Source: Schmidtea nova (Eukaryota). From it: a DNA stretch of 64,000 bases. The notes beneath the pieces are model-generated. The model saw only the letters and a program-made list of their open reading frames with translations, did not search any database and was not told where the DNA came from. The DNA is taken from positions 379,812,001 through 379,876,000 of the forward strand of contig CM097882.1 of the NCBI GenBank assembly GCA_044892505.1. Direction: 5' to 3'. Positions 16,126 to 37,842 of the stretch are shown piece after piece (positions within the stretch are counted from its first letter, which is position 1; each line of letters opens with the position of its first letter). The position numbers and the translations under genes are program-made.

Positions 16126-16182
<57 letters not shown>

Positions 16183-16188
<6 letters not shown>

Positions 16189-16911: not shown

Positions 16912-17047
16912 ATTGGCTAACCAACAACACCGGTTGAGTATAAATACTGAAGTCAAATCAGTATTTGACAATGTCATTTTACCGAGTGCAAGTTGTAACT
17001 GATAACTTGTAGTAATCTTGTGAACCAATCGAAAATAAAAGGTAATT
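16912..17047 (+). promoter_or_regulatory. LTR core promoter, poly(A) signal and candidate major splice donor
   Basis: ATTGG (CCAAT box) at 16912, TATAAATA at 16939-16946, hairpin GTCAAAT-cagt-ATTTGAC at 16952-16969, AATAAA at 17034-17039, and AG|GTAATT at 17041/17042. Confidence 0.6.
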
Positions 17048-17976
17048 TCGAGTTATGTTTTGATGTATTTAAACCCTCATAATTATGTTAAAATCCATAA
17101 GGTTTTCCGGAGGCCTAACAGCCTGACGGATTCTTTGGCCTCTCAGCGCAACACACCTTATCGGTTGTGAGGTACTGATGCGGCGGGACCATAAGTTTAC
17201 TAAATACTTGATGGGGGAAAAAGGGGATGCACATAGGGTATCGAGTAAGACCTAATGATCATGAACTAAGTCAAGGTAGAGACGGTCTAGTACAAACGCT
17301 ATGCATCACGATAATAAGGTATCGAGTGACAGTTAATGGTCATAAATCGAATCAAGGTAAAGCTCATTTCGCAAGGGAAGATATATACATGAGGTATCTT
17401 GACGAGGGGGTGTACCTTCAAGGAGTGCTGGTACATCAAAAGTCGATGAGAATCGGGATAGGTAAAGCGTAACATGGTGGTCAAAGGACATTAGCGCCAA
17501 GGGGCAGTAGTGAACCGAATGAGTTGCTAATAAATACATATAATCCCACTGAGGGCATGAAAAGTCAGACCCGATAGTAGATAAAATTAGTGCGTTTCTC
17601 AACGAAGTAGTTGACTAAGGGATTACTAAATTTTCCCCGTGACGTGAATCTTGATAGTTGCTGATGATGATCCGTAAATGAACCATGTTGAATGAATGAA
17701 AATGATCGATGAGAAATTAAATGTAACGTAAAATATGATTGTAAATAACAAGTCGAAATGAGCGTAGCTAAAACCAACTGAAATTGCGGAGTGAATCAAC
17801 TCACCCAAGTAAAGTCACCACCTACATGAACACCGCGACCAATGGTCTAGTAAATTATATACGAGCTACAAGGCCTACGGCTAATAGAACGATAAACCAA
17901 GTAGGTTGATCGACATAAATATCGATGGTCGATGATAGAGTCTGTCAGTTAACCTAAAATTCCATTTCAGAGTGAC

Positions 17977-18612
17977 ATGATGAAGACCGAATATCTCATG
18001 AAGGAGCCGGTAGGACCCCTAACCGTCAAATCAGAGGAGTACATTCTACGGAGGAAACGGCGCATCCGCTCCGTCATCACACCAAAATTACCTATCGAAA
18101 TCCAAGGAGAGAAGGAGGCCCCACGCCAAATTTTCAACTCCGCACGTAGACACCTGCGTCGATGGACAAGGACCCATATGAGCACAGCGGCAAGTATTCC
18201 CGCCTGTGCATTCCAACTACAGCTGAGGTGGGAAGGCGATGTCAATTGGACGCCCTCCCCGAACCCCACCAAAGATGGATACGAAAGATGGTTCTATCAA
18301 TTTGTAGATGAAACACAACAACCCCGCTGGGTACTAAGCACCGGAATGATGACCGGGCAGGCATTCGGCCAACTCGGGTATTTGCTGCTAGACAGGCCTC
18401 GGTGTGGTGACACTGGGGAAGTCTTCGTTTACCCGAACGCCCCAGGCAGTGTTTCCGTGGATCAACACCCCGAGCCCAAAGACCTTCGCCTCTGGGAGGT
18501 GTTCATTTATCAAAACAAACTGAGTTGGAATCCGGCCCCCGAACTATACCATGAAACAGGGATTCGCCGAGACGAGAACCCGGCCGATCAAGAGTTACGA
18601 CCATACAATTGA
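17977..18612 (+). CDS. LTR-encoded 211-aa protein of unknown function
   Basis: Intact ORF, identical in both LTRs, preceded by the acceptor-like TTCCATTTCAG. Confidence 0.6.
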   Translation: MMKTEYLMKEPVGPLTVKSEEYILRRKRRIRSVITPKLPIEIQGEKEAPRQIFNSARRHLRRWTRTHMSTAASIPACAFQLQLRWEGDVNWTPSPNPTKDGYERWFYQFVDETQQPRWVLSTGMMTGQAFGQLGYLLLDRPRCGDTGEVFVYPNAPGSVSVDQHPEPKDLRLWEVFIYQNKLSWNPAPELYHETGIRRDENPADQELRPYN

Positions 18613-18789
18613 TCACGAGGACGACATCCCAATGAACGAATATCTGTTGTGAATTAAAAATATATGTATCCATTTAAAAGGGTTTTGTTTTGGTTTTGGA
18701 TGCATGGGGAATGAGTAAGGATAAGGGTGCAGTTGTTTAACGGTAAAATGGTGACTGAGAAACCAAACGATACATACATACCCTAGTTA

Positions 18790-19371
18790 ATGATACATTA
18801 CTCAGATATGGACGAAAATCCCAATCTAGATTACAAGCAAGAGGCACGCGAACATAGAGCACGATCTCGTGTCCTCGAGAGTCGCTTGAGACAGCTGAAT
18901 GAGGAGCACCAGCGGATTAAGGCAACATGGTTTAATCCTGAGAGGGTTAAAACCATCTTACAAGCCCGATACAGAGCGGAACGAACGATCGATGAACAAG
19001 CGAGAGAGGTCGCAGCCCTGAAATTAGAGTTGGCCAATTATTTAAAGGTGTCTACCCAAGACTTCATCGCTGAGCAATTGCGTCCAGTGATTAGAGCGAG
19101 CACCTTTAACAAATGGTTAAATTCGACATCAGCAACGACGAGTACGCAAACCGACGAAGAGATAATCGTAACTACGGCAACCGAGATGACCACAATCATA
19201 CCACGAGGGTCGCAGAGGACAAAACGAAGGAACCGCTTAGGGGCGAAAAAGCGGAGGGAGCGACGCGCATATGCAGATCGCGTAGGAATAGAAGTAGACT
19301 TGCTCAGTGGCCTATCTGAACAAGAACTACTAAATGTAATTAGACCCTCTGTATTGTTAAACTATAAATAA
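18790..19371 (+). CDS. LTR-encoded 193-aa coiled-coil protein with an Arg/Lys-rich motif
   Basis: Intact ORF containing KRRNRLGAKKRRERR; AATAAA follows the stop. Confidence 0.6.
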   Translation: MIHYSDMDENPNLDYKQEAREHRARSRVLESRLRQLNEEHQRIKATWFNPERVKTILQARYRAERTIDEQAREVAALKLELANYLKVSTQDFIAEQLRPVIRASTFNKWLNSTSATTSTQTDEEIIVTTATEMTTIIPRGSQRTKRRNRLGAKKRRERRAYADRVGIEVDLLSGLSEQELLNVIRPSVLLNYK

Positions 19372-19761
19372 ATGTATAAAACTAATGATTTGACTTGTCT
19401 TGTTTGTTTGTGGAATGTCTGAGAATTGAATATAACTAAAACCCGGATTCATGTAAAACTGCAGATGCGCTAAGATTAAATTACCCTAGAGCAAAAGAAA
19501 GAGCATAAGTGGGACCGAAAGAAATCCACAGACGCCTTCTATCGGTAGTGGTGGACCCGTGAATAAACAAGGGAATAGTAGCCGAAAGGTTGCTCACCTG
19601 CCTTGTCATTTCACAACGTTGACACAGTACCAACATGATGAGTAGTTAGGGATACATCATGGGTGTCAGCGGGGGAATGTTTTTATGTTGGCGAGATCAC
19701 CCTAACATATAAAATCATGAGGATCTCAGTTGTCAATCTAACCAACACACCAGCATAAATT

Positions 19762-19780
19762 TGGGGGCTCAGCCGGGATT
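19762..19780 (+). promoter_or_regulatory. Primer-binding site, tRNA-Pro-like
   Basis: TGGGGGCTCAGCCGGGATT lies 6 nt after the LTR end. The canonical Pro PBS is TGGGGGCTCGTCCGGGAT (2 mismatches). Confidence 0.85.
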
Positions 19781-20313
19781 AAATCGATCTTTGTGGGAAA
19801 AAGTGAATTCGATATCTGCGGACAGTTTAGAGCGCCTGAACCGGGATGAATTGAATTTAGCGAGGAAAGGTAAAGTAAATAATAACAGAGGGTTTAAGTG
19901 TCGTGAAGCAAGAATGAATCGGGTTGAAAAATAATAGATAAAAGTATGAGTGTAAAATAATGAGATTGATGAACGTGATGAAAGTATGCATGAGAATGAA
20001 AGTATGAATGATAATGGAATGGAAGTATGAGGACGAATGAAGTATGATGAATAGTATGTGGAATAACAGTATGAAAAGTGATGAAAAGTATGCATGACGT
20101 AAGGTAAAAGTATGCTGAAAAGCGCGTATGAAAATGGTATGAGTGTGAGCAACTAACAAGGATCATGTCGGGGCGACATTCAAGAACACGGGGGGATATA
20201 CACGCAGTGACGCAAAACAGAACAACAGAAAGCGAACAGTAGGACTACCATAGAATAAGAATAAGAAATAATAAATAAAAATCGACAGAAATTAATGGTA
20301 ATTCATTCAGGGG

Positions 20314-20772
20314 ATGGAGAACAAAATAAAAGAAATGCAAACGTTTTTCGAGACAAATAACGAGACAATGGAGATAATAATGAGAAAGTTAAGACGACTC
20401 GAGGTAGGAGGATATCACAAACCGACAAACAAAACAGAAAGAGCCGAAATGATGATGAGCATAAGCGAGAATAAGATAACAGTGGATACAGCAACACGAT
20501 ATCAGTGGTATAGAGAAAGATTAAACAACCCTGAGATGAATATCGAGTGCCACAGGCTAGAACAACAAATTGCAACAAAACACGATGAGTGGATAAGAAT
20601 AACAACCGAACATACGAGACAATATCTGACGTGTTACATCTGTGAAATGAATAAGATACAGATACTGTTGTTGCCGTGTGGGCATTATCGATTCTGTAAT
20701 GAGTGTAAAATAAATGAACGATGTCCTATGTGCAACCTTCCCGTATCCGAGAAAATAACAGTGTACTTGTAA
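20314..20772 (+). CDS. 152-aa protein with a C-terminal IAP/MDM2-type C3HC4 RING (no BIR domain)
   Basis: CYICEMNKIQILLLPCGHYRFCNECKINERCPMCNLPVSEKITVYL at the extreme C-terminus. Confidence 0.85.
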   Translation: MENKIKEMQTFFETNNETMEIIMRKLRRLEVGGYHKPTNKTERAEMMMSISENKITVDTATRYQWYRERLNNPEMNIECHRLEQQIATKHDEWIRITTEHTRQYLTCYICEMNKIQILLLPCGHYRFCNECKINERCPMCNLPVSEKITVYL

Positions 20773-21993: not shown

Positions 21994-22317
21994 TCGAAAT
22001 AAAATATTGAGTAAAAGCCCACGAGAAAGACGACGAAGTGAGGCAGATGAGGACTAAATAAAGTATAAAACTATCCGGATAGTAAAGATCAACAAGCGAT
22101 AATGGAGATGAATAAGTGATAATGGGGATAAATGATGAATAGTGAAAATGAATAGCGAATAATGAGGAATAAGGGTTGAAAGAAACCGAGGTAATAATGA
22201 GAGAGTTGAAGGTGCGCACCTGGGTATTGATAAATGCGAGTAAAGCTGATTATGTAGCCTAATGACGTCAAAGTATGCATACAAGGAGGAGTAGTAAAGT
22301 AAAGTGAGTAAGTAAAG

Positions 22318-22870: not shown

Positions 22871-23744
22871 AACAAGAGATGTCAGTTGAATTAAAGGTGA
22901 GTAGAGATGAGAATTGAAATGAAGTAGTAAACGTAGTGTGAATAGGAAATAAAGCGAATAGCCGAGAAACAGAGTAGTCGACAGATAAGGGGAAATTTGA
23001 ACTCAGAGCCAGAGAAGCCTGAGAAAAGTAAAGGGGATAATAAGAGCGCTGAGCGACAAAGTAATTGGGGAACTGGGGAAAAGTAATTGGTGTATTTGAT
23101 AAAGAATAGATAATTGATGCGACTGCATAGATAATTTAAATAGACTTAAAATCAAGGGAAATGGGAAAAATGGGGATCTTCATGAATTATGACTACACCC
23201 GTGAGAGGGACGAGAAACACGATAACGGGGACGTATCGTGTAAGTGATTATTTGTTTTAAGGAAACAAATCAATCAAGCAATTCAAAGCAATCTAGCAGT
23301 CAGAACAATCAAAGGAAACAAATCAAAGAAGAAACAAAGCAAAAGCGAAGTAGAAAATCAGTTGAGAATATAAGAAGTTGAGGAATAGACAAAATTGAGG
23401 GACGAGAAACAAGATCAGGTATAATACCAATCTTAACGGAAGCAGAAAGAAAAGCAGCAAAAAGAACAAGAACAGGTAACAAGCCTAAGCAACAAAAGAA
23501 CAAACAAGTAGAGATCAACGACAATTCGAGTAATAAAGAGAATCAAGAAGAAACCCCAGAAGATCTAGAAGTACGAAACGAAGTAGAAACGATAGACAGT
23601 GAACCAGTTAGTGAAAACATAACGAGAAGCGAATCAAGAGATAACGAAACAGAGAGTAGTGAGGAAGAAGAGTCGAATCCAGAAACAAGTGGTGAACTAG
23701 AAGCAAAGAAAACTAGTACAGTATTCCAAGATAGTGGAATCAGG

Positions 23745-26700
23745 ATGAGTGATCACAGAGAGGATCTAAGAGAAAAATTCAAGGGCGAACCATTCAACGG
23801 AGACGCCAGTAGATTGGATACGTTCCTGAAGGAATTTGGTATATTTGTGGATATATGCGGATGGAGTGCAGAAACGTTGGCAAATCGAATCCCGCTATAC
23901 TTGAAAGATAGCGCATTGGATCTGTATATTGAAAAGAGATCGGGAAGTAGTCCACCCAGAACGTGGGAAGCGATCAAGGAGTTCTTCCAACAGACGTTTG
24001 GGATAAACAAAGTGCTGAATGAAGCATTCGATGAGTTCTCAGCAAGAAAACAGAGGAGAAATGAGTCAAATGCGGTGTACGCAAGTGAATTAAGAAAGTT
24101 GGCGAAACTGGCATTCAACAGAGGAAGTCCAGTAGACGAAGAATTGATGACAGCGTTATTCGTACGAGGTCTCAGGAGACCTGACATCAGAGCACAAGTG
24201 GGATGCAAAGGATGTAAAACAGTAGATGAAGCGTTGGAAGCAGCCAACCTATTCGAATTGCATATGGCAATGAATGACATGAGAATTACGGCGGTAATGG
24301 GAAAAACGACGGAAGATGAAGAACAAGGAAAAAGAAACATGAATCAAAGTATTCCCCATTCGCAGAGATTGTTCAAAGAACCGCCAACGAGGAAGAATAA
24401 CGGATATATTACGGTGAATACGAATGGAGGAAATAGTTACAATGATAGGCAGAATAGGCAATGTCAGACGTGTGGAAAAAACGGACATTGGCAACAAGAT
24501 TGTTTTCAGAATGTAGCCTGCAAACTGTGCGGACAAAAAGGTCACTCAGAGAATCGATGTTATGGGAAAACGTGTTACACATGTGGAAAAACCGGACACA
24601 TGTCAAAAGACTGTAATCAACAGAGAAATTGGTCAAACAGTGGAAATAGACCGAATTACGGGAATCGACCAAGCTATGGGAATCAAGGTCAACAACGGAA
24701 CAACCCAAACAGCAGTGCAAACGAAGCTAGTATGAAAGAAGCTAAGTTGAGACAGGAGGTGTCTAGATTACACGAGATAATCGAAAGCATGGCAAAGGGA
24801 AGCCAACAAGCTGCTCAACCAAAGATAAACATGATCCAGTTAATAGAAGCTGAGGCTGAAAGAGAAAATAGAGAAAGCCAACAGAAACATAACCAAGAAT
24901 GGGCTAGAGTACGACGAGAAGAAGAACAAGTCAGGCAACAACGATTACAACAGTTAAAAAAGGGAAATCCAAGGATCAACATGATGCGAGCAATGATGGA
25001 AGAGAAGCAGCAGGATGAGTCAGACGAGTTAGAAGTTAAAGAGAAAAGAAACGAAGAGCAGAAACAAGAAGAAGTGAGTCAGGAAGTAGAAGCCACAGAG
25101 CAGAATCAAAAAGTTGAAGAAGTAGAAAAAGAAACAGAAATAGAAAAAGAAACAGAAAAAGAAACGAATCAAGAAGAGGAAGTGAGAATCAAACAAAGAG
25201 GAATGTTGGTGATCATGCCGAATGATCACGTGTGGCGATTCAAATACGATGTAAAAGAAGAAGTGGGAAGATTGTTCAATAAAGTAAATGAGATGATGCC
25301 GGGAGTGACGAAACTGCCCAGAGAAGCATTCCTACAAACAGAAGATCTACCAGAAGTGAAGTTAAAGATGACTGATATATGGGAAGATATGGGAGTAACG
25401 GAGACGAAAATAAACGTGATGATCATCAGAGAGGTGGAACCGGAGAAAATCCCACCACCAGTGAAACATCAAACTCGGATCAGTCGAATATTCAAAGGAA
25501 AAATAAGACGAAGACGGTTGGAAGAAATAGATGAGTTGGAGAAAAGAATGGGAAAAGCTGAAGTAACAGGAAACGAGAATGAACTAATACAAGAAGTTAG
25601 CAAAAACGAAGCGAGACCAATCGCACATATTGGGATGCTGAGACACCCAAGACAAGAGTTGTCAGATGAAGAAGACGACAGCGAAGTTAGCAGTCTGGCA
25701 GGAGACATGCTAAAGGAACCGGAAAACGAGGATAAAAAGATGGAAGTAGTCGAGACAATAGAAACAATGTCAGTAAAGGAAGACGAAATTCAGAAGCTGA
25801 TGGATAACGCGTTGGAAGTAATCCATAACGAGGAGTTTATTGACACGAAACGATACCGAAAGTTTATACGAGCAGTATGGCAAATGAAGTACAAAGAGTG
25901 GTTACAAGAAAGAGAAGTGAGGGTAATACAAGAGTTCATAGAGAAGTTATTGAAAGAACCACTCAACGAATATGTAATACAAATATGGATAAACGAGTGT
26001 TCACCGAGAATCTGGATAAGGAACCCAATGACAGACGGAATTTACCGATGGGTTGAGGACAGATTGGGAAGCTCGTACCAAGACAAATTCATATATTCGG
26101 AAAACGGATTGGTGAGAAAAGGAACGCATATGATAGACACGGGCATCTGGCCAGGAGAAATAACGACGTTATCTATATGCAACACCAAGAAGGAAGAGAA
26201 CTTACAAGGAATCGTCAAAGAAGCGAATACGTGTTATGAGATGAGAATAAAACCTCAGTTGCTAGAGGCAAAGGAAAGAATCTTGGCAGAGAATTTGAAT
26301 ACGATGATAGAACAGATCATACAACAAATCAAGAAACATCGAAAGAAATTGACGAAAAGCGAGTATGAGAATTTGAAACAGTGTATCGAGAACATACGAG
26401 ATACAAGTCAAACGAGACATTCAAATTTCAAAACAGACAAGCTAATCGCAAAGATGGGAAAAGAAATGTTTAAAAGAGGAGAAGTATCAGATCTGAAGAT
26501 TACCGTGAGATTACCGAATGAAGAGACAAGACAAATTGAGGTAATACCAGATAGTAAAGTGGGAGAAATAGTAGATGTCATCAATGAGACGATATTACAA
26601 CGAGAACGGGAAGATGAATTCGAGGATGACATTGCGATAAAATACAAAGAACACCTACTAAACGAACGTGACGAAAGACGAGCGTATAAAATCGGCATAT

Positions 26701-29700
26701 GGGATAATTATCAGACAATACATGTCATCAGAATGGATGATGTGCAAAGAGCAACACCAAGGGATGAAAAAAGGAGAAAGAAACGACAAGAGGACGTTAT
26801 GCGCAAGCTGAGGCAGATAGTAGAAATCTATCGGAACTGGCAGATGAAGCCAGAATGGGAGACAATATTAGGAGAAGTGGATCTTAACAGACGACGATTG
26901 ACGCCAGTGGAAAAACAATGGGATAACAAGGAGAAATGTTGGAAAGTGAAAAGAGGCGTGTATGAAGAAGATCCGGAAGGAGAAGACGGATATGAACTGA
27001 ATACGAAACGGATATGTATGGTAACAAGGAAGTTATTACCAACGGACTTAGACGGACCAGAAACTGCAGTAATATGGGCAGAATTGGAGAAACAGAAAAC
27101 GAGTGAATTGATAGAGCTGTTGAGAGGAAACACTCGGGGAAAAAGACAAACAATAAAAGGCTTAGCACAATTCATAATCTCAAATGGAGAAGATATAACG
27201 AACTTGAGAAAAGTAGCTAAAGCGATAGCAGAATACAAGAGAGTTAACGAGTGGTGTCCAGAGCAACTAGACGATGTAATAAAAAAGTGGAGAAACAAAG
27301 AGTTTGCGGAGGAAACGCCACAGAAAATACATTTGAGGATAATGTATCCGAATCAGAGAAAAGAAGAGTTTTGGGTGATGCTAACGGAAAAAGTGAAAAG
27401 TGTTAAAGAGAAACTGATGTACGAACTACCATTCCACCTGCAACATCAAGGACGATCGTTGGATAACAATTTGGAAATCTGGCTGACACCAGTGCAATTG
27501 GATCTAATGAATACGCTAACAGTGGCACAAATAGTGGGTCAACCACTGAAGTTTAAAGAGGAAAAGAAAGCGAAAGGAAGCATGAGTACACCAAGTCCGA
27601 TGAAGTCAACAATGACCCCAGGAACAAGTTCGGGACAAGCAAAGACAACACCAATAAAAACGAGAGAGAGAACACCGCCAGAAGCGTATGACGTCGATGA
27701 GATACTAACAGATAGTGATGAGGCGATAGAAGAACTAACGAAGTTGACTCAAAAACCAACGGCGAATATTTTCGACAGAATAATAGAGATGCCAATAACG
27801 TCACCAGCAGAAATCGACGACCAAGGAGTGGAACAGGAGGTAGTCATAGAAATGGTAAACGATTCGGAAGACGAACAAGAACAACCACAGTTTACTCAAG
27901 AAATGGAAAGATGGTTGGAACAACGAGCAAACGAAGGAAGAGATGTGACGGAAGAAACAGGAAGAGCAACGAGATTTGTAGAAACCGGAACTGGAATGGA
28001 AAAACGACCAAGAGGAAGATCAAAGATAGATCCAGCAACAGCAATTCCAAAGACAAGAGAAGAAAGGAGACAAGAGCAATGGGAGATTTGCTTGAAGAAA
28101 TTGGATAAAATCGCAGAGATCAGAGGAAAAGAAGAGAATCAAGTTTGTCAAGGAGAAGAATGGCTCACCAAAACGATAATGGATGTGTTAGCGATAATTG
28201 ATCCAGAATTAAAGAATTTGTGGCGGATAAACGAACCTAGTACAAAGGCACGGATGCTACACAATGCAATAGCACCGATTATGCCAGAATTAATTAAAGC
28301 GAAAACAAAATCGAATCATCTAGATTGGCAAGGAACCACAATGTTAATAAAAAGGCTACTGAACGGAGCAGAAACGGACAGCAAATATCTAGTAGCAATC
28401 TCGTATACAATATACAATTTGTTAACGCTAAGCCGAGGAAGTCCGAAGTCAAGTCCGATGGGAAGACATATTAAAAATACGGCGTTGATTATCGAGAAAG
28501 AAATTGAACCATATATCCTCAGAAAAGGAGGATGGGAAAAGTTCATAAAAGAGAACCAGACGAAAGAAGGCTCAAACGTCATGAGAAAGAAACTCGAAGG
28601 AGTATTGAGAGAAATGGAGAATAGACAAACGATGCAAGGAAACGGAAGATCGACGTTGAATTTGAACTCGATAATCATGATGATGTTAGTATGGTTGTTA
28701 AGCACAGAAGGTGTAACAACGTTCGAAGTATTTGATTGCGATCAAATGAAGTTAGGAGAAAAGTACTCATTGAGAGGTACGGAGCAATGCAAAGATGCAA
28801 CTCCCGTAGAGTTAAAAGAGATTAAAAAGGAACAATGGTACAACGTGTATCAAGAGGCAGAACTAATAAAGACAATGGTGAATGAATGCAAGGTGCAGAA
28901 GACGAGATTCGCATTTTATTGTGGGAGAGGACATTATTCAGCAATTGTCATGCCAGGAACAGAAAGAGAACCAATCGTGTTGCAAGGAGAAGACTGCGAA
29001 GCATTATTTAAACATGGAGAAGTAACAACGAGAGATAAAATCAAGATAAGAGGAAAGCCAGGAATGATGTTACAGCAGACGTATTATGTAGCAGGACGAA
29101 TTACGGGAGGAGAAGGGTATTGTCAAGGAGAAACCTACCCAATATTCGGAGTGCCTGCAACCAACTTAGTTGTGATGGATACGTACATAGTTGAACTGAA
29201 AAGTTACGAAGCATTTTTTGAACCAACCACAGGAGAAATGAAAACGTTATCCATGTGTAAAATCGACAGAAGCATGTGTCAAACGGGAATGTCAACATTG
29301 GTGTATAAACCAAAGGTGAACGAATGTCAATTACAACTGCTACAAGGAGCAAAGTTTGACGAAATTCAAGGGAAAACATTCCAAGAAGAAGATGATGATG
29401 ACAAAGCTAGAGCAAAACATCTCAAAGAGGCTTTAGAGAATAAAAGACAATTGAGACCAGATCACAAAGAAAAACGGATAGAGATGAGAACCACACCAAC
29501 AGTGCTGATAACCACAAATCAGGATGTGGGAATGAGATTCATAAAAGGGAAAGCAACCCTTAAGTGCAGTACAACAGTATACGAAACAAACTATCCAGGA
29601 ATATACGTGTCAAAGCAAGAAGTGCCGAATGCGAAACCCAAGATTGACACCATGGATATCAAGCTACACTTGTATGTGAATAATAAAATGGATTTCTTAT

Positions 29701-32700
29701 TCCATAGAGGACAAGCCTCATTGCAAAAAGTGTACTATGACCTGATAAACAACGATTGTATACTGAATCGAGAAATATTAAAGACAAAGTTGGCCGTAGC
29801 GATTACGAATCCAGATAGCGCGATGCCGTTATTACCACTGAGAGAAGGACATTTCGGAAGAGTGGTCGGAGAAGCAATGTATGTATACATTTGCGAAAAG
29901 ACACACGCATCGCTAGCAACAACAACGCAGTTGAAACCTGGACAATGTACAAACGAACTAGAAATCGATTACAAAGGAAAAGTACGATACGTTCAACCGG
30001 TGACGAGAATCATCAATCCACCAAGTTTTGAACCAAATCCATTCAACTGTAGTAACGCGTACGGACCGCTTTATCAGAAGCCAGATGGCAAATGGGTCAT
30101 GTTCCCAGGAAGAACTGAAGTATTAGCACCAAGAGAATTTGAGCTAATGCAGTTGTCAAAAGATAGACAGTTCAGCGACGTAGATGTCTCAAACAACGGA
30201 ATCTATAGTCCAAAAGATCTGGAAGCAGCAAGACAGAATATACTATTTCCGGCAAGAAGAGAAGCATTACTGTCAAATATCGTAACGATAACGGGAGGAA
30301 CGAATTATCGAGAAGGACCGAATTACGAACTGCTGTTGTCACCGGCACATTTCAAGAAAGCCACAGAAAATATGATGAAGGCGATGTGGGGAAGATTCCT
30401 GATATTTGGACAAATGATGGCTGGAATACTGGGAGTTATATTGATAATACAAATCGTCAGAGTGATAATAACGCAGATGTTAGCGTGTTTCGACATCTAC
30501 AAGAGAGAAAAGAAAGTGAATTGGAAAATGGTAGTAGGATTTTTACCATTCCTTGCGAAAACGATGGTGTTACATGGACACTCAAAAGACATACATCGAA
30601 TAAAGAGGTTGTTGAAGATACTTGCAAAAATGAAAGGAACTAACGAAGATGTCGGAAGAAAATTCAAAAAGATAATGCAAGATGAACAAGCAAGACGACA
30701 ACTGAAGAAGGAAAGGAAAGGATTATGGGAAAGAGTGAGAGGATATCGAACACAAGATGATTCAAGTAATGATGACGATGATGATGACGATCGAGGAGGA
30801 CAAGCGAATATAAACCAGATTCCACAGTATACCGAAAAGAGTGCAGTTGAGAATTGGAGATACAGCGCTCCACCTCAGTCGATGTATAACGAACCGATAT
30901 ACAAAGCGAAGCCGAATATGATGCAGATGATGCCGATGACAAGTATATACCCGATAATTCCAGAAGGATGCAAAGTAAAACGAGGTAGTAGCGTAAACTC
31001 GTTGGAAGACACGCACACGATAGCAGTTATGTCCACAAATATGGGACCCATCTTAACAACAACCGTAGAAATAAACGGAAGAGAAATTGAAGCTATGATC
31101 GATACAGGCGCGAATATTTCGGCGATCGACATTAATTATATACCAGAGAAAAACCAAGGAGAAATCGAGAAGACGAATGTACATGTAATCGCGTGCAGTC
31201 AAGAGACAGTAGAAGTAGCCGGAAGATGGTTTGTAAAAATTAAGCATCGAGGTGCAGAGATCAACACGTACATCGCTGTAATACCATCGCTGAGTGTACC
31301 ATGTATTATTGGAACTGACCTGATGCCAGACCTGTTCAAGGAAATCGTGATTGATCTAGGAGCAATGAAACTAAAAGATAGAACAGGAAAAATTTGCAGA
31401 ATGAAAGTTAAAGTGGCAAGTGCAGAACAAATAGTAGTGCCAGCGAGACATGAAAAGATGTGTTATGTCAAGATCGATTCAACAATAAAGGGAGATATGA
31501 TATTCGAACCAAGTAAGAAGTTCGAAGCGAAGAAGGAATTACCAATGGCAAGAGAACTGGTTACGACAAACCAAGAAGGTGAGATACCGATTAATCTGGT
31601 AAATTTCGACGAAGAGGACAAGATAATATACGAGAATGAGAGATTGGGTAAATTGACACCCATGTCCGAAATCGAAATACCAGACAAGAATGAGTGGGCA
31701 AAGGCCAAAGAAACGATCAAGCAAAGTAGACTAGGAAACATAGAACCATCCAAAGATATGGAAATACGAGAATTCGAGTCTAGCACACTCGCGGTTCAAG
31801 CGTATGAAAGATTAATTGAAGAAATTAATGTCGAGGACGACATTTTTAAAGGACCAGGGGGTGGTTCCAAAGATCACAACGATAAAGGAGACGCCGAAAA
31901 GGAGAACAACGAGGATAACAACAGCAACAGCGACAACAAAAGAACGGAAGATGAGGAAAGAGAGAGACAAGAAGAACCGAAGCCAACGAGAAACGACAAG
32001 AAAGGAGAAGCCGAAGAACGAGACAACAGTGGAACAAAAGATGAACATGCGAACTATGGAAAACGAACAGGAAGTCTACTTTTGAGACCAGAAATGTTGT
32101 GTATTGCGATATTGATAACAATCATCGGACAAGGAGAAGCCAAGAAACAACACGTCACGCTAGAGATAATCAGAGGAAACGAAGTATACGAAAGAATATG
32201 CTGGAAAGAAAACATGAGGAAAAACGATACGCTGAAGTGCATATTGTCAGATTTGAAGAAAGACGTCATCCAAATCAAAGGATTGGAGAAAGAAAAGTCA
32301 TACATAATATGCGCAATAAAGCAGAGAGGAGAACCGAAAGCACCTCAAGTAACTGCATGTCAATTATATAAAGCAACAGAAGCGCTGAAAATACAGAAAT
32401 GGATTGAGAAAAGAAGCGAAGAGACAACGAGAAGAACAGAAGTAGAATCGGAGAAAGGGAAGAATCAATCTGAAGCAGAAAAAGGAATCGGAAACCGAAC
32501 GGAGAAAGAAAGAATAACCAAAAATTCAGCGGGAAAATTAACATTCCAACCGGAATTGATATGTGTAGCATTAATACTAATCCTCATTAAGAGAATCATG
32601 GAGGACATAGATATTAGCGTAATGACGTTAGTAAATATCCAAGACCAACGAACAACGAACGGAAGATGTTGGGGACGAAACAATGAGGTAATTGGAATCA

Positions 32701-34019
32701 GCGAAACAAGAGAAAGTCGAGAGGCAGAGACAAATGAGGAAATCGAGATAACCGAAATGGAAACAGAGAAAACATGTGAACTATGCCTCATGGAAAAGGC
32801 AGCAAACGGAAACAGACCAGGAACAAGCGAGTGTAAAGTGTTCCAAGCAAAGGAGATAATTGAGTTCCCAAAAAGAAAGAAACAAGATCAAGAAACGATT
32901 GCGAATGAAGTAGTAACAGTGGAGATAAAAAACATTGGTCGGAGAACAATTGGGATGTGTTGGAGAAAATACATCGGAGTACCGACCAACAACGTACTAC
33001 CGCAATGCAAAACGAGAGAACGAGGAATCCCGTTTCAACTAAATGGATTCGAAGTCGGACAAGCATATGAAATTTGCGTAATCCGAAGAATAAGAGAAAT
33101 AATACAAAGAAGCCTGGAATGTAAACTATACAAGACGCCAGAGCAAATTAACGGAACAAGAACGATCGAAATGGGAGGAAGTCGACAGAGGAAAAGAAAG
33201 TCAAGAAGAACCACGACAGCCAACAGTCAAGGAACTCAACAGGCAACAACAGAAAGGATGACAATAGAAAACGAACCGGAATCAACAACGTTGATAATAT
33301 GGAAGATCCATAAAAAGGTCCTAGAAATCTGTTGGACGTTGATGCCAAACAGTATGGGAAAGTCCCCACGAAACTGTCAAAAGACATCAAATGACAAAAG
33401 GGAAACAATCGAGGTAGAAATGAGGAAGTTGAAAACAAATGCAGAATACGAAGTGTGTGCAATCGAAGAAGTAGATGCACAAGGAAATCAACAGGAAAGG
33501 TGTGAAACCTATTACACGCCAAGAAACGTAACGATAAAGAGGAGAATCAAAAAGTTAGAATTCCGAGAATTGAGTCAGAAGAGAGAACAAAACGAGAAGG
33601 AGGAGACAATACCAAGTCGACAAGAAAAATGGGAACCAGAGAAAGTGATCGAAGAAGTCAGACGGAGACAACAACAATACGAACAATGGGAAGCAGAATG
33701 GAAAGGTCAATATGGCGTGATGATAAACCAAAGTGAGACTCCAAGAAGGAGCATTGGGAAAACAATAATGGGATTAATCAGCATGGGAGTATTCATAGGG
33801 TGTATACCACTGATAACGATCATGATAGTATGTTGGAGATATGGCATGAGAAATAAGACCATAGCAGTAAAATGGCCAGACGTAAAGGTCATGAATTACA
33901 ACATAAAACTACCAAAAGAAGTACGAGAAGAGCTGAAAAGACGGTCAAGACATGAAGAGATGTGGGTACAGATCGAGGACGAGGAACTGTACGAAGGAAA
34001 ACCAGTAATAGTTGTATAG
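23745..34019 (+). CDS. 3424-aa polyprotein: Gag + 3 CCHC, UBL domains, Bcl-2-like domain, chuvirus-type env, retropepsin, dUTPase-like segment, 4 FN3-like modules, TM
   Basis: Gag FNGD..F..EF..RKQ..NES; knuckles at 24462-24614; EPYILRKGGWEKF (BH2-like) at 28500-28544; signal peptide followed by FDC..YSL..C..FYCG from 28668; TM at ~30395-30480; AMIDTGANIS (DTG at 31101) and IIGTD; terminal TM at ~33765-33836. Confidence 0.93.
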   Translation: MSDHREDLREKFKGEPFNGDASRLDTFLKEFGIFVDICGWSAETLANRIPLYLKDSALDLYIEKRSGSSPPRTWEAIKEFFQQTFGINKVLNEAFDEFSARKQRRNESNAVYASELRKLAKLAFNRGSPVDEELMTALFVRGLRRPDIRAQVGCKGCKTVDEALEAANLFELHMAMNDMRITAVMGKTTEDEEQGKRNMNQSIPHSQRLFKEPPTRKNNGYITVNTNGGNSYNDRQNRQCQTCGKNGHWQQDCFQNVACKLCGQKGHSENRCYGKTCYTCGKTGHMSKDCNQQRNWSNSGNRPNYGNRPSYGNQGQQRNNPNSSANEASMKEAKLRQEVSRLHEIIESMAKGSQQAAQPKINMIQLIEAEAERENRESQQKHNQEWARVRREEEQVRQQRLQQLKKGNPRINMMRAMMEEKQQDESDELEVKEKRNEEQKQEEVSQEVEATEQNQKVEEVEKETEIEKETEKETNQEEEVRIKQRGMLVIMPNDHVWRFKYDVKEEVGRLFNKVNEMMPGVTKLPREAFLQTEDLPEVKLKMTDIWEDMGVTETKINVMIIREVEPEKIPPPVKHQTRISRIFKGKIRRRRLEEIDELEKRMGKAEVTGNENELIQEVSKNEARPIAHIGMLRHPRQELSDEEDDSEVSSLAGDMLKEPENEDKKMEVVETIETMSVKEDEIQKLMDNALEVIHNEEFIDTKRYRKFIRAVWQMKYKEWLQEREVRVIQEFIEKLLKEPLNEYVIQIWINECSPRIWIRNPMTDGIYRWVEDRLGSSYQDKFIYSENGLVRKGTHMIDTGIWPGEITTLSICNTKKEENLQGIVKEANTCYEMRIKPQLLEAKERILAENLNTMIEQIIQQIKKHRKKLTKSEYENLKQCIENIRDTSQTRHSNFKTDKLIAKMGKEMFKRGEVSDLKITVRLPNEETRQIEVIPDSKVGEIVDVINETILQREREDEFEDDIAIKYKEHLLNERDERRAYKIGIWDNYQTIHVIRMDDVQRATPRDEKRRKKRQEDVMRKLRQIVEIYRNWQMKPEWETILGEVDLNRRRLTPVEKQWDNKEKCWKVKRGVYEEDPEGEDGYELNTKRICMVTRKLLPTDLDGPETAVIWAELEKQKTSELIELLRGNTRGKRQTIKGLAQFIISNGEDITNLRKVAKAIAEYKRVNEWCPEQLDDVIKKWRNKEFAEETPQKIHLRIMYPNQRKEEFWVMLTEKVKSVKEKLMYELPFHLQHQGRSLDNNLEIWLTPVQLDLMNTLTVAQIVGQPLKFKEEKKAKGSMSTPSPMKSTMTPGTSSGQAKTTPIKTRERTPPEAYDVDEILTDSDEAIEELTKLTQKPTANIFDRIIEMPITSPAEIDDQGVEQEVVIEMVNDSEDEQEQPQFTQEMERWLEQRANEGRDVTEETGRATRFVETGTGMEKRPRGRSKIDPATAIPKTREERRQEQWEICLKKLDKIAEIRGKEENQVCQGEEWLTKTIMDVLAIIDPELKNLWRINEPSTKARMLHNAIAPIMPELIKAKTKSNHLDWQGTTMLIKRLLNGAETDSKYLVAISYTIYNLLTLSRGSPKSSPMGRHIKNTALIIEKEIEPYILRKGGWEKFIKENQTKEGSNVMRKKLEGVLREMENRQTMQGNGRSTLNLNSIIMMMLVWLLSTEGVTTFEVFDCDQMKLGEKYSLRGTEQCKDATPVELKEIKKEQWYNVYQEAELIKTMVNECKVQKTRFAFYCGRGHYSAIVMPGTEREPIVLQGEDCEALFKHGEVTTRDKIKIRGKPGMMLQQTYYVAGRITGGEGYCQGETYPIFGVPATNLVVMDTYIVELKSYEAFFEPTTGEMKTLSMCKIDRSMCQTGMSTLVYKPKVNECQLQLLQGAKFDEIQGKTFQEEDDDDKARAKHLKEALENKRQLRPDHKEKRIEMRTTPTVLITTNQDVGMRFIKGKATLKCSTTVYETNYPGIYVSKQEVPNAKPKIDTMDIKLHLYVNNKMDFLFHRGQASLQKVYYDLINNDCILNREILKTKLAVAITNPDSAMPLLPLREGHFGRVVGEAMYVYICEKTHASLATTTQLKPGQCTNELEIDYKGKVRYVQPVTRIINPPSFEPNPFNCSNAYGPLYQKPDGKWVMFPGRTEVLAPREFELMQLSKDRQFSDVDVSNNGIYSPKDLEAARQNILFPARREALLSNIVTITGGTNYREGPNYELLLSPAHFKKATENMMKAMWGRFLIFGQMMAGILGVILIIQIVRVIITQMLACFDIYKREKKVNWKMVVGFLPFLAKTMVLHGHSKDIHRIKRLLKILAKMKGTNEDVGRKFKKIMQDEQARRQLKKERKGLWERVRGYRTQDDSSNDDDDDDDRGGQANINQIPQYTEKSAVENWRYSAPPQSMYNEPIYKAKPNMMQMMPMTSIYPIIPEGCKVKRGSSVNSLEDTHTIAVMSTNMGPILTTTVEINGREIEAMIDTGANISAIDINYIPEKNQGEIEKTNVHVIACSQETVEVAGRWFVKIKHRGAEINTYIAVIPSLSVPCIIGTDLMPDLFKEIVIDLGAMKLKDRTGKICRMKVKVASAEQIVVPARHEKMCYVKIDSTIKGDMIFEPSKKFEAKKELPMARELVTTNQEGEIPINLVNFDEEDKIIYENERLGKLTPMSEIEIPDKNEWAKAKETIKQSRLGNIEPSKDMEIREFESSTLAVQAYERLIEEINVEDDIFKGPGGGSKDHNDKGDAEKENNEDNNSNSDNKRTEDEERERQEEPKPTRNDKKGEAEERDNSGTKDEHANYGKRTGSLLLRPEMLCIAILITIIGQGEAKKQHVTLEIIRGNEVYERICWKENMRKNDTLKCILSDLKKDVIQIKGLEKEKSYIICAIKQRGEPKAPQVTACQLYKATEALKIQKWIEKRSEETTRRTEVESEKGKNQSEAEKGIGNRTEKERITKNSAGKLTFQPELICVALILILIKRIMEDIDISVMTLVNIQDQRTTNGRCWGRNNEVIGISETRESREAETNEEIEITEMETEKTCELCLMEKAANGNRPGTSECKVFQAKEIIEFPKRKKQDQETIANEVVTVEIKNIGRRTIGMCWRKYIGVPTNNVLPQCKTRERGIPFQLNGFEVGQAYEICVIRRIREIIQRSLECKLYKTPEQINGTRTIEMGGSRQRKRKSRRTTTANSQGTQQATTERMTIENEPESTTLIIWKIHKKVLEICWTLMPNSMGKSPRNCQKTSNDKRETIEVEMRKLKTNAEYEVCAIEEVDAQGNQQERCETYYTPRNVTIKRRIKKLEFRELSQKREQNEKEETIPSRQEKWEPEKVIEEVRRRQQQYEQWEAEWKGQYGVMINQSETPRRSIGKTIMGLISMGVFIGCIPLITIMIVCWRYGMRNKTIAVKWPDVKVMNYNIKLPKEVREELKRRSRHEEMWVQIEDEELYEGKPVIVV

Positions 34020-34141
34020 AGGGTGGAATATGAGTGTAAATAGTAGTGTAAAAACCAATGCATAACCGTATACGTATGGGTATAAATATTATAAAACATA
34101 AAAACAGAAAAAAGAGAATGATGTATATAATCTAGAAAACG

Positions 34142-34492
34142 ATGAATCAAGAAAATATCGAGATGTCGATGATGACAAGATGGAAAGTGCAATGTGACCT
34201 GCTAGCCAGAACAGTAAATGAATTACAGAGCCAGTTGACGGCCAAAACACAATTATTAACCGAGAGTTATAACTGTAATTTCGAAGCAATGAACAAAATT
34301 GAGATTCAACAACTACAGATAAACGAATTACAGAACGAGAACCGAACATTAAATGAAGTGAACAACTGGCAAGCAGAGGAAATTGACCGATTAACGAGAC
34401 ATGAAGAAGAAGAGATACCGGATAGTTGGACGAGCTGGATTGTGAATGAGATAGACGTGTATCCAGAGCCGGATTCAACTGAGGATGTATAG
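34142..34492 (+). CDS. 116-aa coiled-coil cargo protein
   Basis: Intact ORF with the same purine-rich sense strand; its C-terminus (YPEPDSTEDV) resembles that of the 386-aa ORF (FHEPEETDV). Confidence 0.65.
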   Translation: MNQENIEMSMMTRWKVQCDLLARTVNELQSQLTAKTQLLTESYNCNFEAMNKIEIQQLQINELQNENRTLNEVNNWQAEEIDRLTRHEEEEIPDSWTSWIVNEIDVYPEPDSTEDV

Positions 34493-34581
34493 TGAATAAG
34501 CGGAAAATTGTGTAAATACGTGTAAATAAAGAACCAGAAAAATCAAAAATATGGGGAAATTGATGTAAATATTGTTGTAGA

Positions 34582-35994
34582 ATGAGAGCAGAAAGTGAAG
34601 CAGATTACCAAACAATCGAGATTCTAAGAGGAGAGAATCGACAATGGGGAGTAAATGTGACGTGTGTAAAGTGTAAAAATTTACTGTTAAAACCGAGACA
34701 AACGGAATGTGGATGCAGGATGTGCACCAAGTGTATATTGCAAATAATCAGTGAAAGTGAGACAAGAAAGTGTCCAGAGTGTGACGATAAACTACTGATC
34801 AACGAGACAAAACCAGATAAAGCAATACAAAAGGAGATCTGGAAGATAAAAACAGAGTGTATAAACCAACCATGCGAATGGAAAGGACAAATAATCGAGC
34901 TAAGACAACATCTGGAGAAATGTGAAAACAAGAAAGCGATATGTGAAAAGTGCCAACAGACGATAACCATCAAGCAGTCAAAAAAGCACAAGGACGAGTG
35001 CAAAGCAGAGATAATAGAGTGTCAATACTGCGAACAAAGAGAGACGAGAGAAGTAATCGAAACAGAGCATCTCAACGTAGCAGAAGAGAAAGTGTGTAGA
35101 AAATTCAGAGGAATTTGTCCAAGTAATTGTGGAGCAGGAGAAGAAGTGATGTTGAAAGAACATTGGGAACAGTGCGAATCCAGACCAAGAAAGTGCGTAT
35201 GGAGTAAACAAGGATGTGCAGTAAAGAAAACGAGCAAAGAGATGAAAGAGCATTTGGAAACGGAAACGGTACAACACGCCGAGATGTTAACAGCGAATTT
35301 GAACGGAATGGAGCAAACCATACAGAAACTGGGAAAAGAAATCGAATCTCAGAGGATAATGACGGAGTTATTACTGGAAACGAGAGAGCAATTCGAGCTC
35401 ACCGGAGAAAAAATGATGGAGAAAATCAAAGTCATAGAGACATTGGTAAAAGAAGTAAACGTGAGACATCAAATGTGGATACGAGATACAGAGGATATCG
35501 AGAATTTACCGGTCGCACCATATGTATGGAAAATCAAGAACTTCAATGACAAATTCGCAGCAGCAAAAGCAGGAAGTCAAGTGTCGGTAACAAGTCCACC
35601 ATTCTATCTGTGGAAAAATGGATACAAAGTCCGGATGAGAATTTATGCAAATGGAGATGGATCAGGAAAGGAAACGCATGTGTCGTTATTCTTCGCGTTG
35701 TGTAAAGGTGGTTACGACGACATATTAGAATGGCCACTAGAAACAAAGGCTATAATGAGAGTGAAAAACTCGAAAGAAACAATAGCGAGAGTATTCAAAA
35801 TTGATGGTAAGCACGAAGCTTACAAAAGACCAACCACAGAATGTTCATTAGCGACTGGAGAACCAAAATTCATACCACACCAAACAACGTGGGAGATGTT
35901 GTACGATGACAACTTATATGTAGAATTGGAAATCGAAAAGAAAGCAAGTACAACAGTGATGAACACGAAGTGCACGAAAGGATGGTTAGAGTAG
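34582..35994 (+). CDS. TRAF: Intronless full-length TRAF-family protein (RING, TRAF zinc fingers, coiled coil, MATH)
   Basis: CVKC..PRQTECGCRMCTKC..CPEC; PDKAIQKEI..C.N..C.W.G; CVWSKQGC; MATH domain YVWKIKNF..SPPFY..GYKVRMRIYANGDGSGKETHVSLFF.L.KG.YDDILEWP. Confidence 0.95.
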   Translation: MRAESEADYQTIEILRGENRQWGVNVTCVKCKNLLLKPRQTECGCRMCTKCILQIISESETRKCPECDDKLLINETKPDKAIQKEIWKIKTECINQPCEWKGQIIELRQHLEKCENKKAICEKCQQTITIKQSKKHKDECKAEIIECQYCEQRETREVIETEHLNVAEEKVCRKFRGICPSNCGAGEEVMLKEHWEQCESRPRKCVWSKQGCAVKKTSKEMKEHLETETVQHAEMLTANLNGMEQTIQKLGKEIESQRIMTELLLETREQFELTGEKMMEKIKVIETLVKEVNVRHQMWIRDTEDIENLPVAPYVWKIKNFNDKFAAAKAGSQVSVTSPPFYLWKNGYKVRMRIYANGDGSGKETHVSLFFALCKGGYDDILEWPLETKAIMRVKNSKETIARVFKIDGKHEAYKRPTTECSLATGEPKFIPHQTTWEMLYDDNLYVELEIEKKASTTVMNTKCTKGWLE

Positions 35995-36083
35995 TCAGAG
36001 TGAACAACCCTGTAAATAAAGTGTAAAAATCGACGACAACAATAAACATATAGTATAACAAGTGTAAATTTGTAAATTACAGA

Positions 36084-37244
36084 ATGGAAAACGCAAATGA
36101 ACATGTAAGCGAAGATGACACGAGAAACGAGATGTCAAACGAACGAGAATCAATAGAAAGAGAAATCGAAAGGAGATGTAAAATGGAAGTGGAACAAAGA
36201 ACCAGAGAATTAAACGAAGTAATGACAAATAATTTCTACGAGAAACTAAAATGTGAGAGACGAACGGAGTTATATCAACTAGAACTCGAGGAAGTAAATA
36301 AAGAGATAGTACAACTGACAACACAAATGGAGAAGCTAAAAGGAACGAATGTACGAAGTCGACAGAAGATAGAAGAGACCTATCAGTTGATGAGGAAACA
36401 AGCAGAACATTATAAAAATATGATGAAAACACGAAGAGAAGAGAGGGAGAAACAAGAGGAAAAGATGGAGGTAAAAATACTAGCAATCAAGGCTCAAGCG
36501 AGACATTGGAAGATGGAGTCGAAACGAGTGTATAAAGAAGCCAAAGAAATAATCAGAAAGACAGCATACAGCGAAGATTGGAAACTGTATCAAGAGATAG
36601 ACGAATTGAAAGAGGAATTGGAACAGAAAAAGCGACAAGAACAGACAAACAAAGAATGGAGTCGAAAACGACAGCGATTTATTCGAGAACAGGCGAAGGA
36701 ACTAAAGAAAACGCAATGGCAAATACAGATGATAAATGGAGAAATGCGAGGCATTAGACAGAAAGAGGAAGCGGAAAGACAAAAGTTGATCAGGGAAAAA
36801 GAAAGTCTGGAAAGAGATGTAAATGGCTACCAAGGAGTAGTGACTCAAAAGAAAATGGAACTGAAAGCTGTGAAGGAAAGACATGCGGAATCAAACCGAG
36901 CTTATGAGGAAAATATAACGAACTTGACGAAAGAAAACGAGGAACTGAAACAACAAATAAGAACCCTGAAAGCAGAGAAAGAAACCCCAGAAATAGAAAC
37001 CGAACCACCAGAAGCAGAAGCCCTGAAGAGAAAAGTGGAAGAAATGGAAAGACAAATCGAAACTCTGAGCGAACAATCAGACTACATGGAGTATCTGTTA
37101 GATGAAGAGATACAAATCTCTCGAACGTATCAAGATGAAATCGCAATGTGGCGAAGCAGAGTGGTGTGGTTACCGTTTATACCACCACCACCAATGGAAC
37201 TCCAAGATGAAGGGTTCCATGAACCAGAGGAGACGGATGTGTAA
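36084..37244 (+). CDS. 386-aa coiled-coil cargo protein
   Basis: Long intact E/K/R-rich heptad ORF. Confidence 0.75.
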   Translation: MENANEHVSEDDTRNEMSNERESIEREIERRCKMEVEQRTRELNEVMTNNFYEKLKCERRTELYQLELEEVNKEIVQLTTQMEKLKGTNVRSRQKIEETYQLMRKQAEHYKNMMKTRREEREKQEEKMEVKILAIKAQARHWKMESKRVYKEAKEIIRKTAYSEDWKLYQEIDELKEELEQKKRQEQTNKEWSRKRQRFIREQAKELKKTQWQIQMINGEMRGIRQKEEAERQKLIREKESLERDVNGYQGVVTQKKMELKAVKERHAESNRAYEENITNLTKENEELKQQIRTLKAEKETPEIETEPPEAEALKRKVEEMERQIETLSEQSDYMEYLLDEEIQISRTYQDEIAMWRSRVVWLPFIPPPPMELQDEGFHEPEETDV

Positions 37245-37317
37245 AAAGAGGCGAAAAATCCGTGTGTAAAAATGTACAAATCAATGTAACAGGTATTAAT
37301 CAGTAGAATAATCAGAA

Positions 37318-37842
37318 ATGAACTGGCTCAAAACCCTACCAATCCTAACGATTATGTTAACTACAACAATAATGACCTGTTCAACAACCGAAATCCAAAG
37401 AACCCTGTCAAACGAGATATCCCAAGAAATCGAAAAACAACTAAACGAAGTCAGAGAAGACTTGGAACAATTAATCCGACAAATGCGAATCAGTCATGAT
37501 CATCGCAAACCCTTACAAACCCTATTCAACCAAATCGAGAAGATCCGAGAAATCCATAAAACATTCCAAGATCACCTAAAGCCCATCAAAGGCCAAACCC
37601 AAATCGAATCCGAAATCCGAAACAGATGGATCATCGTGGGAATAGTCACAATGACAATACTGACAATCATCCTGATCATCGTGATTACGCATACCCTATA
37701 TCGAATCAGAAGCCTCAAACAACAACAAACGATAATGTGTAGATGCGCCAAACGAGAAGCAAAAACCCAACAAAGGATGAGAAGTCATCTACGACAAATC
37801 CAAGCCCGATACGAAATGCAGTCAACCAGTGAAAGGACCTGA
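37318..37842 (+). CDS. 174-aa predicted type I membrane protein (signal peptide, helical ectodomain, TM)
   Basis: N-terminal MNWLKTLPILTIMLTTTIMTC and TM WIIVGIVTMTILTIILIIVITHTLY. Confidence 0.75.
   Translation: MNWLKTLPILTIMLTTTIMTCSTTEIQRTLSNEISQEIEKQLNEVREDLEQLIRQMRISHDHRKPLQTLFNQIEKIREIHKTFQDHLKPIKGQTQIESEIRNRWIIVGIVTMTILTIILIIVITHTLYRIRSLKQQQTIMCRCAKREAKTQQRMRSHLRQIQARYEMQSTSERT

Follow-up and report, generated by a model that had tools for sequence, protein, structure and literature searches.

A single LTR leader, probably cis-spliced onto accessory genes, in a giant Burro-like retrotransposon of Schmidtea nova

How does a retrotransposon that carries seven accessory open reading frames (ORFs) beside one polyprotein express them all? 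The question is raised by a giant Burro-like long terminal repeat (LTR) element of 24.7 kb at positions 16538-41265 of a 64,000-nucleotide stretch of Schmidtea nova DNA (GenBank assembly GCA_044892505.1, contig CM097882.1, positions 379,812,001 to 379,876,000 of the forward strand), referred to here as the window. An earlier sequence-only reading held that every ORF of the element has a YAG shortly before its ATG, and proposed either alternative splicing in the manner of complex retroviruses or the resolution of a polycistron by a spliced leader (SL). We consider it probable that a single LTR leader is cis-spliced onto an acceptor in front of each accessory ORF. The cis branch of the earlier proposal has gained an exact copy of the first junction and a conserved donor, whereas its "every ORF" clause was overstated. 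Copies were sampled from family A (that of the window element; 5 copies), family B (with a longer polyprotein; 6), and the smaller families C and D (3 each). The features that concern the first splice are as follows.

16538..19755, plus strand: 5' LTR, 3,218 nt, TG...CA, with two ORFs inside
16910..16946, plus strand: promoter, an inverted CCAAT box (TGATTGG) and a TATA box (TATAAATA at 16939)
16960..17041, plus strand: predicted non-coding leader exon, its 5' end placed from the TATA box, its length varying by copy
17042..17970, plus strand: first intron, a 929-nt GT..AG interval from the LTR donor to the L1 acceptor
17977..18612, plus strand: LTR ORF L1, 211 aa, no family above cut-off

The first splice has left a copy of itself in the genome. 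In a sister LTR (L071/L073), which is the 3' LTR of one 5'-truncated family-A copy, the promoter and leader run directly into the first bases past the L1 acceptor. The gap matches the 929-nt GT..AG interval precisely; this LTR measures 2,307 nt as compared with 3,218 nt. Because the two intron ends share only AG, a random deletion at both predicted ends would be very unlikely, and reverse transcription of a spliced RNA is the simplest cause of this copy. The same leader variant has 28 matches in the genome, and all 12 other siblings inspected continue with GTAATT or GTAAAT. At the DNA level, L071/L073 thus demonstrates cis-splicing of the first intron, and trans-splicing is, as judged from these sequences, unnecessary for the first ORF. 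The leader-to-L1 splice retains the primer site. A search with the junction motif gave two matches against two control matches, one unrelated and the other L071/L073, while a search for a non-G continuation after the leader returned L071/L073 and two unrelated sites. Generic leader-end searches yielded 11 matches (four unspliced family-B variants, six unrelated and L071/L073), and a junction search using the window copy's own leader yielded three chance matches, having missed L071/L073 because the leader sequence varies.

The promoter and donor behind this splice are conserved. TGATTGG followed by TATAAATA at equal spacing is present in 6/6 family-A and 6/6 family-B LTRs, and only two CCAAT-TATA pairs exist within the whole element. 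The 100-140 nt past the TATA box vary by indels, yet the donor is preserved; the distance from the TATA box to the leader end ranges from 104 to 122 nt in seven family-A LTRs, and the leader ends in AAAG/GTAATT, GTATGT or GTATGG in family A (6/6 LTRs) and is followed by GTAATT in family B (6/6). The sequence-only reading had suggested a donor at 17041/17042 next to an AATAAA, and this proved to be the conserved one (AAG/GTAATT in the window copy, with the AATAAA at 17034). AATAAA or ATTAAA lies beside the donor in 6/6 family-A LTRs and is absent from family B. A promoter at the 3' end of the LTR (TATA box at 19708, donor at 19869/19870 past the primer site) was also considered and rejected, as TATA 19708 is absent in family B. 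Likewise, the search for a joined copy of donor 19869/19870 gave one chance match against one control match, and a read-depth peak at 19452-19779 was discarded as promoter evidence, as that segment has 2,291 genome candidates compared with 466 for the LTR middle. Contigs from four read runs over 16500-21400 had 18 joints, and none of the 15 listed was of GT..AG type; as these runs are not on record as RNA, this result is uninformative about splicing.

Downstream of L1, the element is laid out as follows.

18790..19371, plus strand: LTR ORF L2, 193 aa, weak acceptor 18786
19762..19779, plus strand: primer-binding-site-like 18-mer 3' of the LTR, common to family B, which we take to resemble a tRNA-Pro primer site
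20314..20772, plus strand: RING-finger ORF, 152 aa, acceptor 20310, PF13920 at E 3e-9
23382..34019, plus strand: polyprotein frame, 3,424 aa, first ATG 23745
34020..34141, plus strand: first 3' spacer, 122 nt, with TGTAHATA twice, CCAAT and TATA-like boxes at 34055-34088, and acceptor 34135
34142..34492, plus strand: o116 accessory ORF, 116 aa, acceptor 34135, coiled-coil-like weak matches only
34582..35994, plus strand: TRAF-like ORF, 470 aa, with RING, TRAF zinc finger and MATH, PF21355 at E 4e-25, acceptor 34580
36084..37244, plus strand: coiled-coil ORF, 386 aa, acceptor 36082
37318..37842, plus strand: o174 ORF, 174 aa, with hydrophobic stretches, acceptor 37315
38048..41265, plus strand: 3' LTR, with a second promoter, donor (38551/38552), L1 and L2

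We infer that the LTR leader also uses acceptors beyond that of L1. The eight acceptor coordinates proposed earlier are all correct: the AGs end at 17970, 18786, 20310, 23743, 34135, 34580, 36082 and 37315, and lie 6, 3, 3, 1, 6, 1, 1 and 2 nt before their ATGs. Within the element, a YAG falls 0-6 nt before 102 of 548 sense-strand ATGs (0.186), and at this background the chance of eight YAGs in eight is ~1e-6. All eight ORFs of the window copy do have their YAG, but the site of the polyprotein is private to this copy, and the rule therefore covers the seven accessory ORFs. The context of the polyprotein ATG is ATCGGG-ATG in 4/4 other family-A copies and ATTGAA-ATG in 6/6 family-B copies, and the reading frame around AATCAG at 23743 stays open over the 121 preceding codons (5/5 family-A copies). 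By this comparison, the YAG at 23743 is a coincidence of the window copy.

The accessory sites were ranked with an acceptor weight matrix trained on 11 sites of families B, C and D, some of them orthologous to the tested sites, so that the ranks are not fully independent. Among 2,091 AGs, the site of L1 ranked 9, L2 1089, RING 6, o116 25, TRAF 2, the 386-aa ORF 4 and o174 37; among 473 non-coding AGs, the same sites ranked 6, 309, 5, 11, 2, 4 and 17. Separately, the top-scoring AG of the whole element, at 38000, precedes the 3' LTR by 47 nt, is not followed by an ORF and may reflect a local U-rich tract.

The T-rich AG sites of RING, o116, TRAF and the 386-aa ORF are kept across families at 42%–56% protein identity (28%–56% for family-B accessory proteins against family A as a whole, 50% for o116). 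More specifically, 6/6 family-B copies have a YAG at o116 (TTTAG), TRAF and the coiled-coil ORF, at 3, 3 and 2 nt before the ATG, respectively; at the coiled-coil ORF it is a T-rich tract with TAG. At RING, a YAG lies 3 nt before the ATG in 5/6 copies; the sixth has an additional upstream ATG. The LTR ORFs have theirs at a distance of 0-1 nt, among them first ORFs of 159 aa and 166 aa with no match to L1, one of which has a long T tract. These family-B sites are retained despite different upstream sequence. The TRAF acceptor is kept in 13/13 family-A copies in which the start was found (14 examined), and the single 3' ORF of families C and D has TTTTAG 6 nt and 3 nt upstream, respectively (3/3 copies each). 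The distance from AG to ATG at o116 drifts between 6, 7 and 8 nt among sister copies, and thus no reading frame appears to be imposed from upstream.

The polyprotein would be reached through a site that the sequence-only reading did not contain.

23240..23261, plus strand: predicted acceptor of the polyprotein mRNA, TTTTAAG at 23261, rank 5 of 2,091 AGs

A counterpart, ATTTTAG, is present in 6/6 family-B copies. The 6.8 kb between the promoter and the first polyprotein ATG contain three ORFs and 162 ATGs, which would make cap scanning to the polyprotein implausible. The 483 nt from 23261 to 23744 contain no ATG, as compared with the 162 from 16970 to 23744 and an average of 25 per kb in the polyprotein ORF, and the stretch past the acceptor is ATG-free in family B as well. 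The open frame before the first polyprotein ATG extends over 121 codons in 5/5 family-A copies and 173-197 codons in 6/6 family-B copies, and in both families it starts near AAA-ATT-GAG, which suggests that the polyprotein has a non-AUG start near this sequence. No upstream exon supplies the start codon, since acceptor and ATG do not keep a constant frame relative to each other and a stop codon in frame lies between them. Families C and D (L053, L062) possess a similar 34-codon extension, RPYYELRS or RPFYQLRS.

Expression may then proceed as follows. The CCAAT/TATA promoter of the LTR, judging by its conservation, would drive transcription, and the leader is joined to L1 as recorded in the genomic junction copy. 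Alternatively, the leader would skip to L2, RING, the four 3' ORFs or, for the polyprotein, 23261, and each ORF would be the first on its own mRNA. The mRNAs of L1, L2, RING and o174 probably end at poly(A) signals just past the stop codon and would form alternative last exons. Such poly(A)-like signals were found for L1 (ATTAAA 18653 with a GU-rich tract), L2 (AATAAA 19367 with a U/GU-rich tract), RING (AATAAA 20777) and o174 (AATAAA 37886); in family A, and mostly in family B, L1, L2 and RING are each followed by AATAAA or ATTAAA and then by a U/GU-rich tract. RNA that keeps the primer site would be packaged; since 162 AUGs precede gag on it, this RNA probably does not serve as the gag mRNA. 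As the weakest step of this scheme, the spacers would recruit a Pumilio-type protein through their UGUAHAUA motifs.

This last step concerns the spacers between the genes, for which the earlier measurements hold: the four 3' spacers are 122, 89, 89 and 73 nt long, they contain TGTAAA repeats (10 versus 0.45 in shuffles), and two of them share TGTAAATAAAG, at 34521 and 36011. The five spacers between co-oriented genes are 73-177 nt long, all under 300 nt. The Pumilio-type element is UGUAHAUA, which we take the TGTAHATA repeats to match. TGTAHATA occurs six times in the 3' spacers of family A and seven times in each of two family-B copies versus ~0.1 in shuffles (0.08 for family A; 0/5000 reach the count), never antisense in spacers, and 0/7 occurrences in the element fall in coding sequence. 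GTAAAYA, which we take to be a forkhead-like motif, is also enriched in the spacers (5 versus 0.31), and the variants TGTATATA fit UGUAHAUA and not the forkhead motif. AATAAA is not enriched, with 3 versus 2.0 in family A and 8 versus 4.0 and 7 versus 3.7 in family B (174 and 322 of 5000 shuffles reach these counts). Three other interpretations were tried and rejected. UGUA as a CFIm poly(A) element is at odds with PMC5068929, in which the sequence preceding planarian poly(A) signals is reported not to be enriched in UGUA; an excess of AGGTAA (10 non-coding versus 3 coding) as U1 protection sites was unseen in family-B stretches; and a hairpin in the first 3' spacer gave weak, inconsistent folds of -4.4 to -4.9 kcal/mol.

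Several points weigh against a single LTR leader for all accessory ORFs, beginning with the incomplete independence of the matrix. One of eight predicted junctions has been shown, and from a single 5'-truncated copy. No joined copies were found for L2, RING, the polyprotein acceptor, o116 or TRAF (the 386-aa and o174 junctions were not searched); the search at the polyprotein acceptor returned two matches, both unspliced variants, and that for the family-B first ORF one chance match only. Joined copies are not expected at the distal acceptors because those splices remove the primer site, but this does not apply to L2. At L2 the acceptor is weak, and one family-A variant (L029) lacks it; the o174 site is the least conserved in family B, with a YAG in only 1/6 copies. 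Introns of 17-25 kb would need to pass up to seven poly(A)-like sites. The AG-to-ATG distance is divisible by three in 12 of 19 distinct sites (binomial P 0.007, the sites being non-independent), a spacing that would suit a leader with AUG at its end. Finally, an internal promoter, followed by a short intron of its own, apparently drives the 3' ORF of families C and D, and a CCAAT-TATA pair also occurs at 34055 in family A.

The best surviving alternative, though an unlikely one in our estimation, is a mixed arrangement in which the first LTR intron is cis-spliced and the 3' cluster is an operon cut by the host spliced leader after upstream 3' cleavage. The 73-122 nt spacers match flatworm operon spacing (PMC8629364, PMC12582326), which peaks near 100 bp in Macrostomum (PMC8629364) and for which a 300-bp cut-off has been used in flatworms (PMC12582326). 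In flatworms, AUG forms the 3' end of the spliced leader and many acceptors serve both cis- and trans-splicing (PMC12582326); the 12/19 excess would agree with such an AUG, and Cer1 of C. elegans, a Gypsy/Ty3-type element, yields spliced RNA that can carry SL1 (PMC3315495). Flatworm SL operons likewise have co-oriented genes ~100 nt apart and an acceptor before each start (PMC8629364, PMC12582326), but here a competing cis donor works upstream, at 17041/17042, and is used at least for L1. Moreover, an AUG at the leader end would be out of frame at 3/7 family-A sites, o116 drifts through 6, 7 and 8 nt, AATAAA is unenriched in the 3' spacers, and an A-rich start context (AAA-ATG) alone could favour a distance of 3.

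An internal promoter, or promoters, for the 3' cluster, with acceptors that serve a local leader or AGs that mark a local start, appears improbable. Foamy viruses do use an internal promoter, and in families C and D (one copy each; L054 2693-3090, L063 2539-2954) CCAAT and TATA boxes, a GTAATT donor and a TTTTAG acceptor stand between the polyprotein and the 3' ORF, which has 468-482 aa and no Pfam match. The family-A CCAAT and TATA boxes at 34055-34088 are kept in 11/11 copies listed, and the GTAAAYA enrichment of the spacers could be read in the same way. However, no donor separates the family-A TATA box from the o116 acceptor, which follows ~50 nt later, the family-B spacer has no CCAAT box, other spacers are without a CCAAT-TATA pair, and the TGTATATA variants fit the Pumilio-type rather than the forkhead motif. 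That only the first acceptor is real, the others being chance sites or relics and the downstream ORFs being reached by ribosomes that re-initiate or enter internally on a polycistronic RNA, is very hard to credit: the polyprotein site did prove to be chance and the L2 and o174 sites are weak, but the RING, o116, TRAF and 386-aa sites are T-rich, top-ranked AGs that persist at 42%–56% protein identity.

Extending the leader scheme, we can imagine an eight-gene unit run like a virus, in which genome RNA and mRNAs would be fully separate, the polyprotein would come from a spliced RNA with a non-AUG start, solo LTRs would be self-contained spliced two-gene units, and the 3' operon would be SL-resolved under Pumilio control. 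As a whole, this picture is speculative and we doubt it.

Complex retroviruses (HIV-1, and foamy viruses with their major donor in R) use one donor and several acceptors before accessory starts, and some of their RNA is kept unspliced. The window element resembles them in its single conserved 5' donor, the exact junction copy and the acceptors just before accessory starts. It differs in being of Gypsy type, with a donor inside the LTR and upstream of the primer site, ORFs that do not overlap, several of them with their own poly(A)-like signal, and an env within the polyprotein, not the separately spliced env gene of Retroviridae. No Rev-like factor was identified, L1, L2 and other small ORFs having no assigned function, although no dedicated test was made. 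The adenovirus major late unit likewise puts a common leader on alternative acceptors and combines it with alternative poly(A) sites; it belongs to a DNA virus whose full-length RNA is not the genome, whereas the window element needs full-length RNA as genome. The long RNA of Cer1 must skip consensus splice sites (PMC3315495), but Cer1 has one spliced product and no accessory-gene array. Fish foamy-like elements are mentioned in PMC6431247.

The LTRs of the element differ by three mismatches across 3.2 kb and it is flanked by a 4-nt target duplication, CATC. One frame of the polyprotein encodes, in order, zf-CCHC (275-291), PF24664 (1912-2253) and a protease (2439-2529), with PF24664, a mononegavirus-like fusion domain, in frame between the Gag zinc knuckles and the protease. 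The window copy is without reverse transcriptase (RT), RNase H and integrase, ~4.6 kb being missing near 31.7 kb. In sister copies the open frame reaches nearly 5,085 aa, matches to RT, RNase H, integrase and ankyrin are present, and the total length is near 29 kb, and the fusion region has 2,636 first-look candidates across the genome. Burro / GYPSM1 comprises giant Gypsy-like planarian elements with a mononegavirus-like env that lies between gag and the protease and shares their frame, an ORF of ~5,000 aa, a length of >30 kb, and MATH/TRAF, RING, ankyrin, BIR and BCL2 cargo (PMC6431247, section 7). By description, the window element shares with these the huge ORF, Gag knuckles, in-frame env-like domain, TRAF/MATH and RING cargo, accessory ORFs and thousands of related copies, and its sisters share the RT-RNase H-integrase and ankyrins. 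The single ORF of ~5,000 aa with protease, RT, RNase H and integrase is found in the sisters and not in the window copy, and against >30 kb the window copy measures 24.7 kb and the sisters near 29 kb. The window element also differs in having TRAF as a separate downstream ORF and two ORFs inside the LTR. No Pfam match to BIR or BCL2 domains was found in the window element, and no relative of the RING ORF was found at E 1e-8 among 33 candidates.

Section 7 of PMC6431247 does not mention the expression mode of Burro accessory ORFs, and the literature searched, including term look-ups in PMC6431247 and PMC8532177 and leaving aside the primary Burro paper and its supplements, contained no account of Burro-element splicing. 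The type of element is an established one and the mechanism has its precedent in complex retroviruses, while their combination appears to be undescribed in the literature searched. Few LTR retrotransposons are as large as the Burro-like elements, whose cargo is apoptosis- and ubiquitin-related. If the one-leader, many-acceptor scheme is true, complex-retrovirus expression would have been invented in parallel in a Gypsy-type element; the polyprotein would have another start and another mRNA than naive annotation gives, and the LTRs in the genome would be spliced expression units. The scheme supplies exact junction coordinates that can be checked in existing long-read RNA data.

Several further observations concern the element and its surroundings. 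The first LTR ORF is exchangeable, with a 65% identical variant in one family-A copy (L029/L031) and ORFs of 159 aa and 166 aa, unrelated to L1, in family B (L033, L040); each lies behind its own acceptor-like site. Two family-A copies (L025, L026) carry deletions in the 3' cluster, with TRAF truncated and the coiled-coil ORF and o174 partly or wholly gone. Between RING and gag lie a 19-nt tandem repeat present 16 times (21615-22051) and an 85-nt-spaced unit present seven times (22300-22912), the latter with a small CTGG-AAAA-CCCAG inverted core; together they form a candidate packaging region. The element insertion adjoins a fragment at 16096-16537 in which a YVDD reverse-transcriptase motif is broken by a (TA)n run, and which we take to be Penelope-like. 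On the other side, long inverted arms at 41320-52404 surround a 691-aa ORF with no Pfam match above cut-off and a DTDS motif that is presumably typical of family-B DNA polymerases; a hAT transposase lies on the minus strand of the same region (46424-47710). An ordinary Gypsy-like gag/RT fragment is found separately at 62088-63678, and the host gene at 4669-7581 is an ERCC6L-like SNF2 helicase ORF of 970 aa in a single frame with a 249-nt internal duplication.

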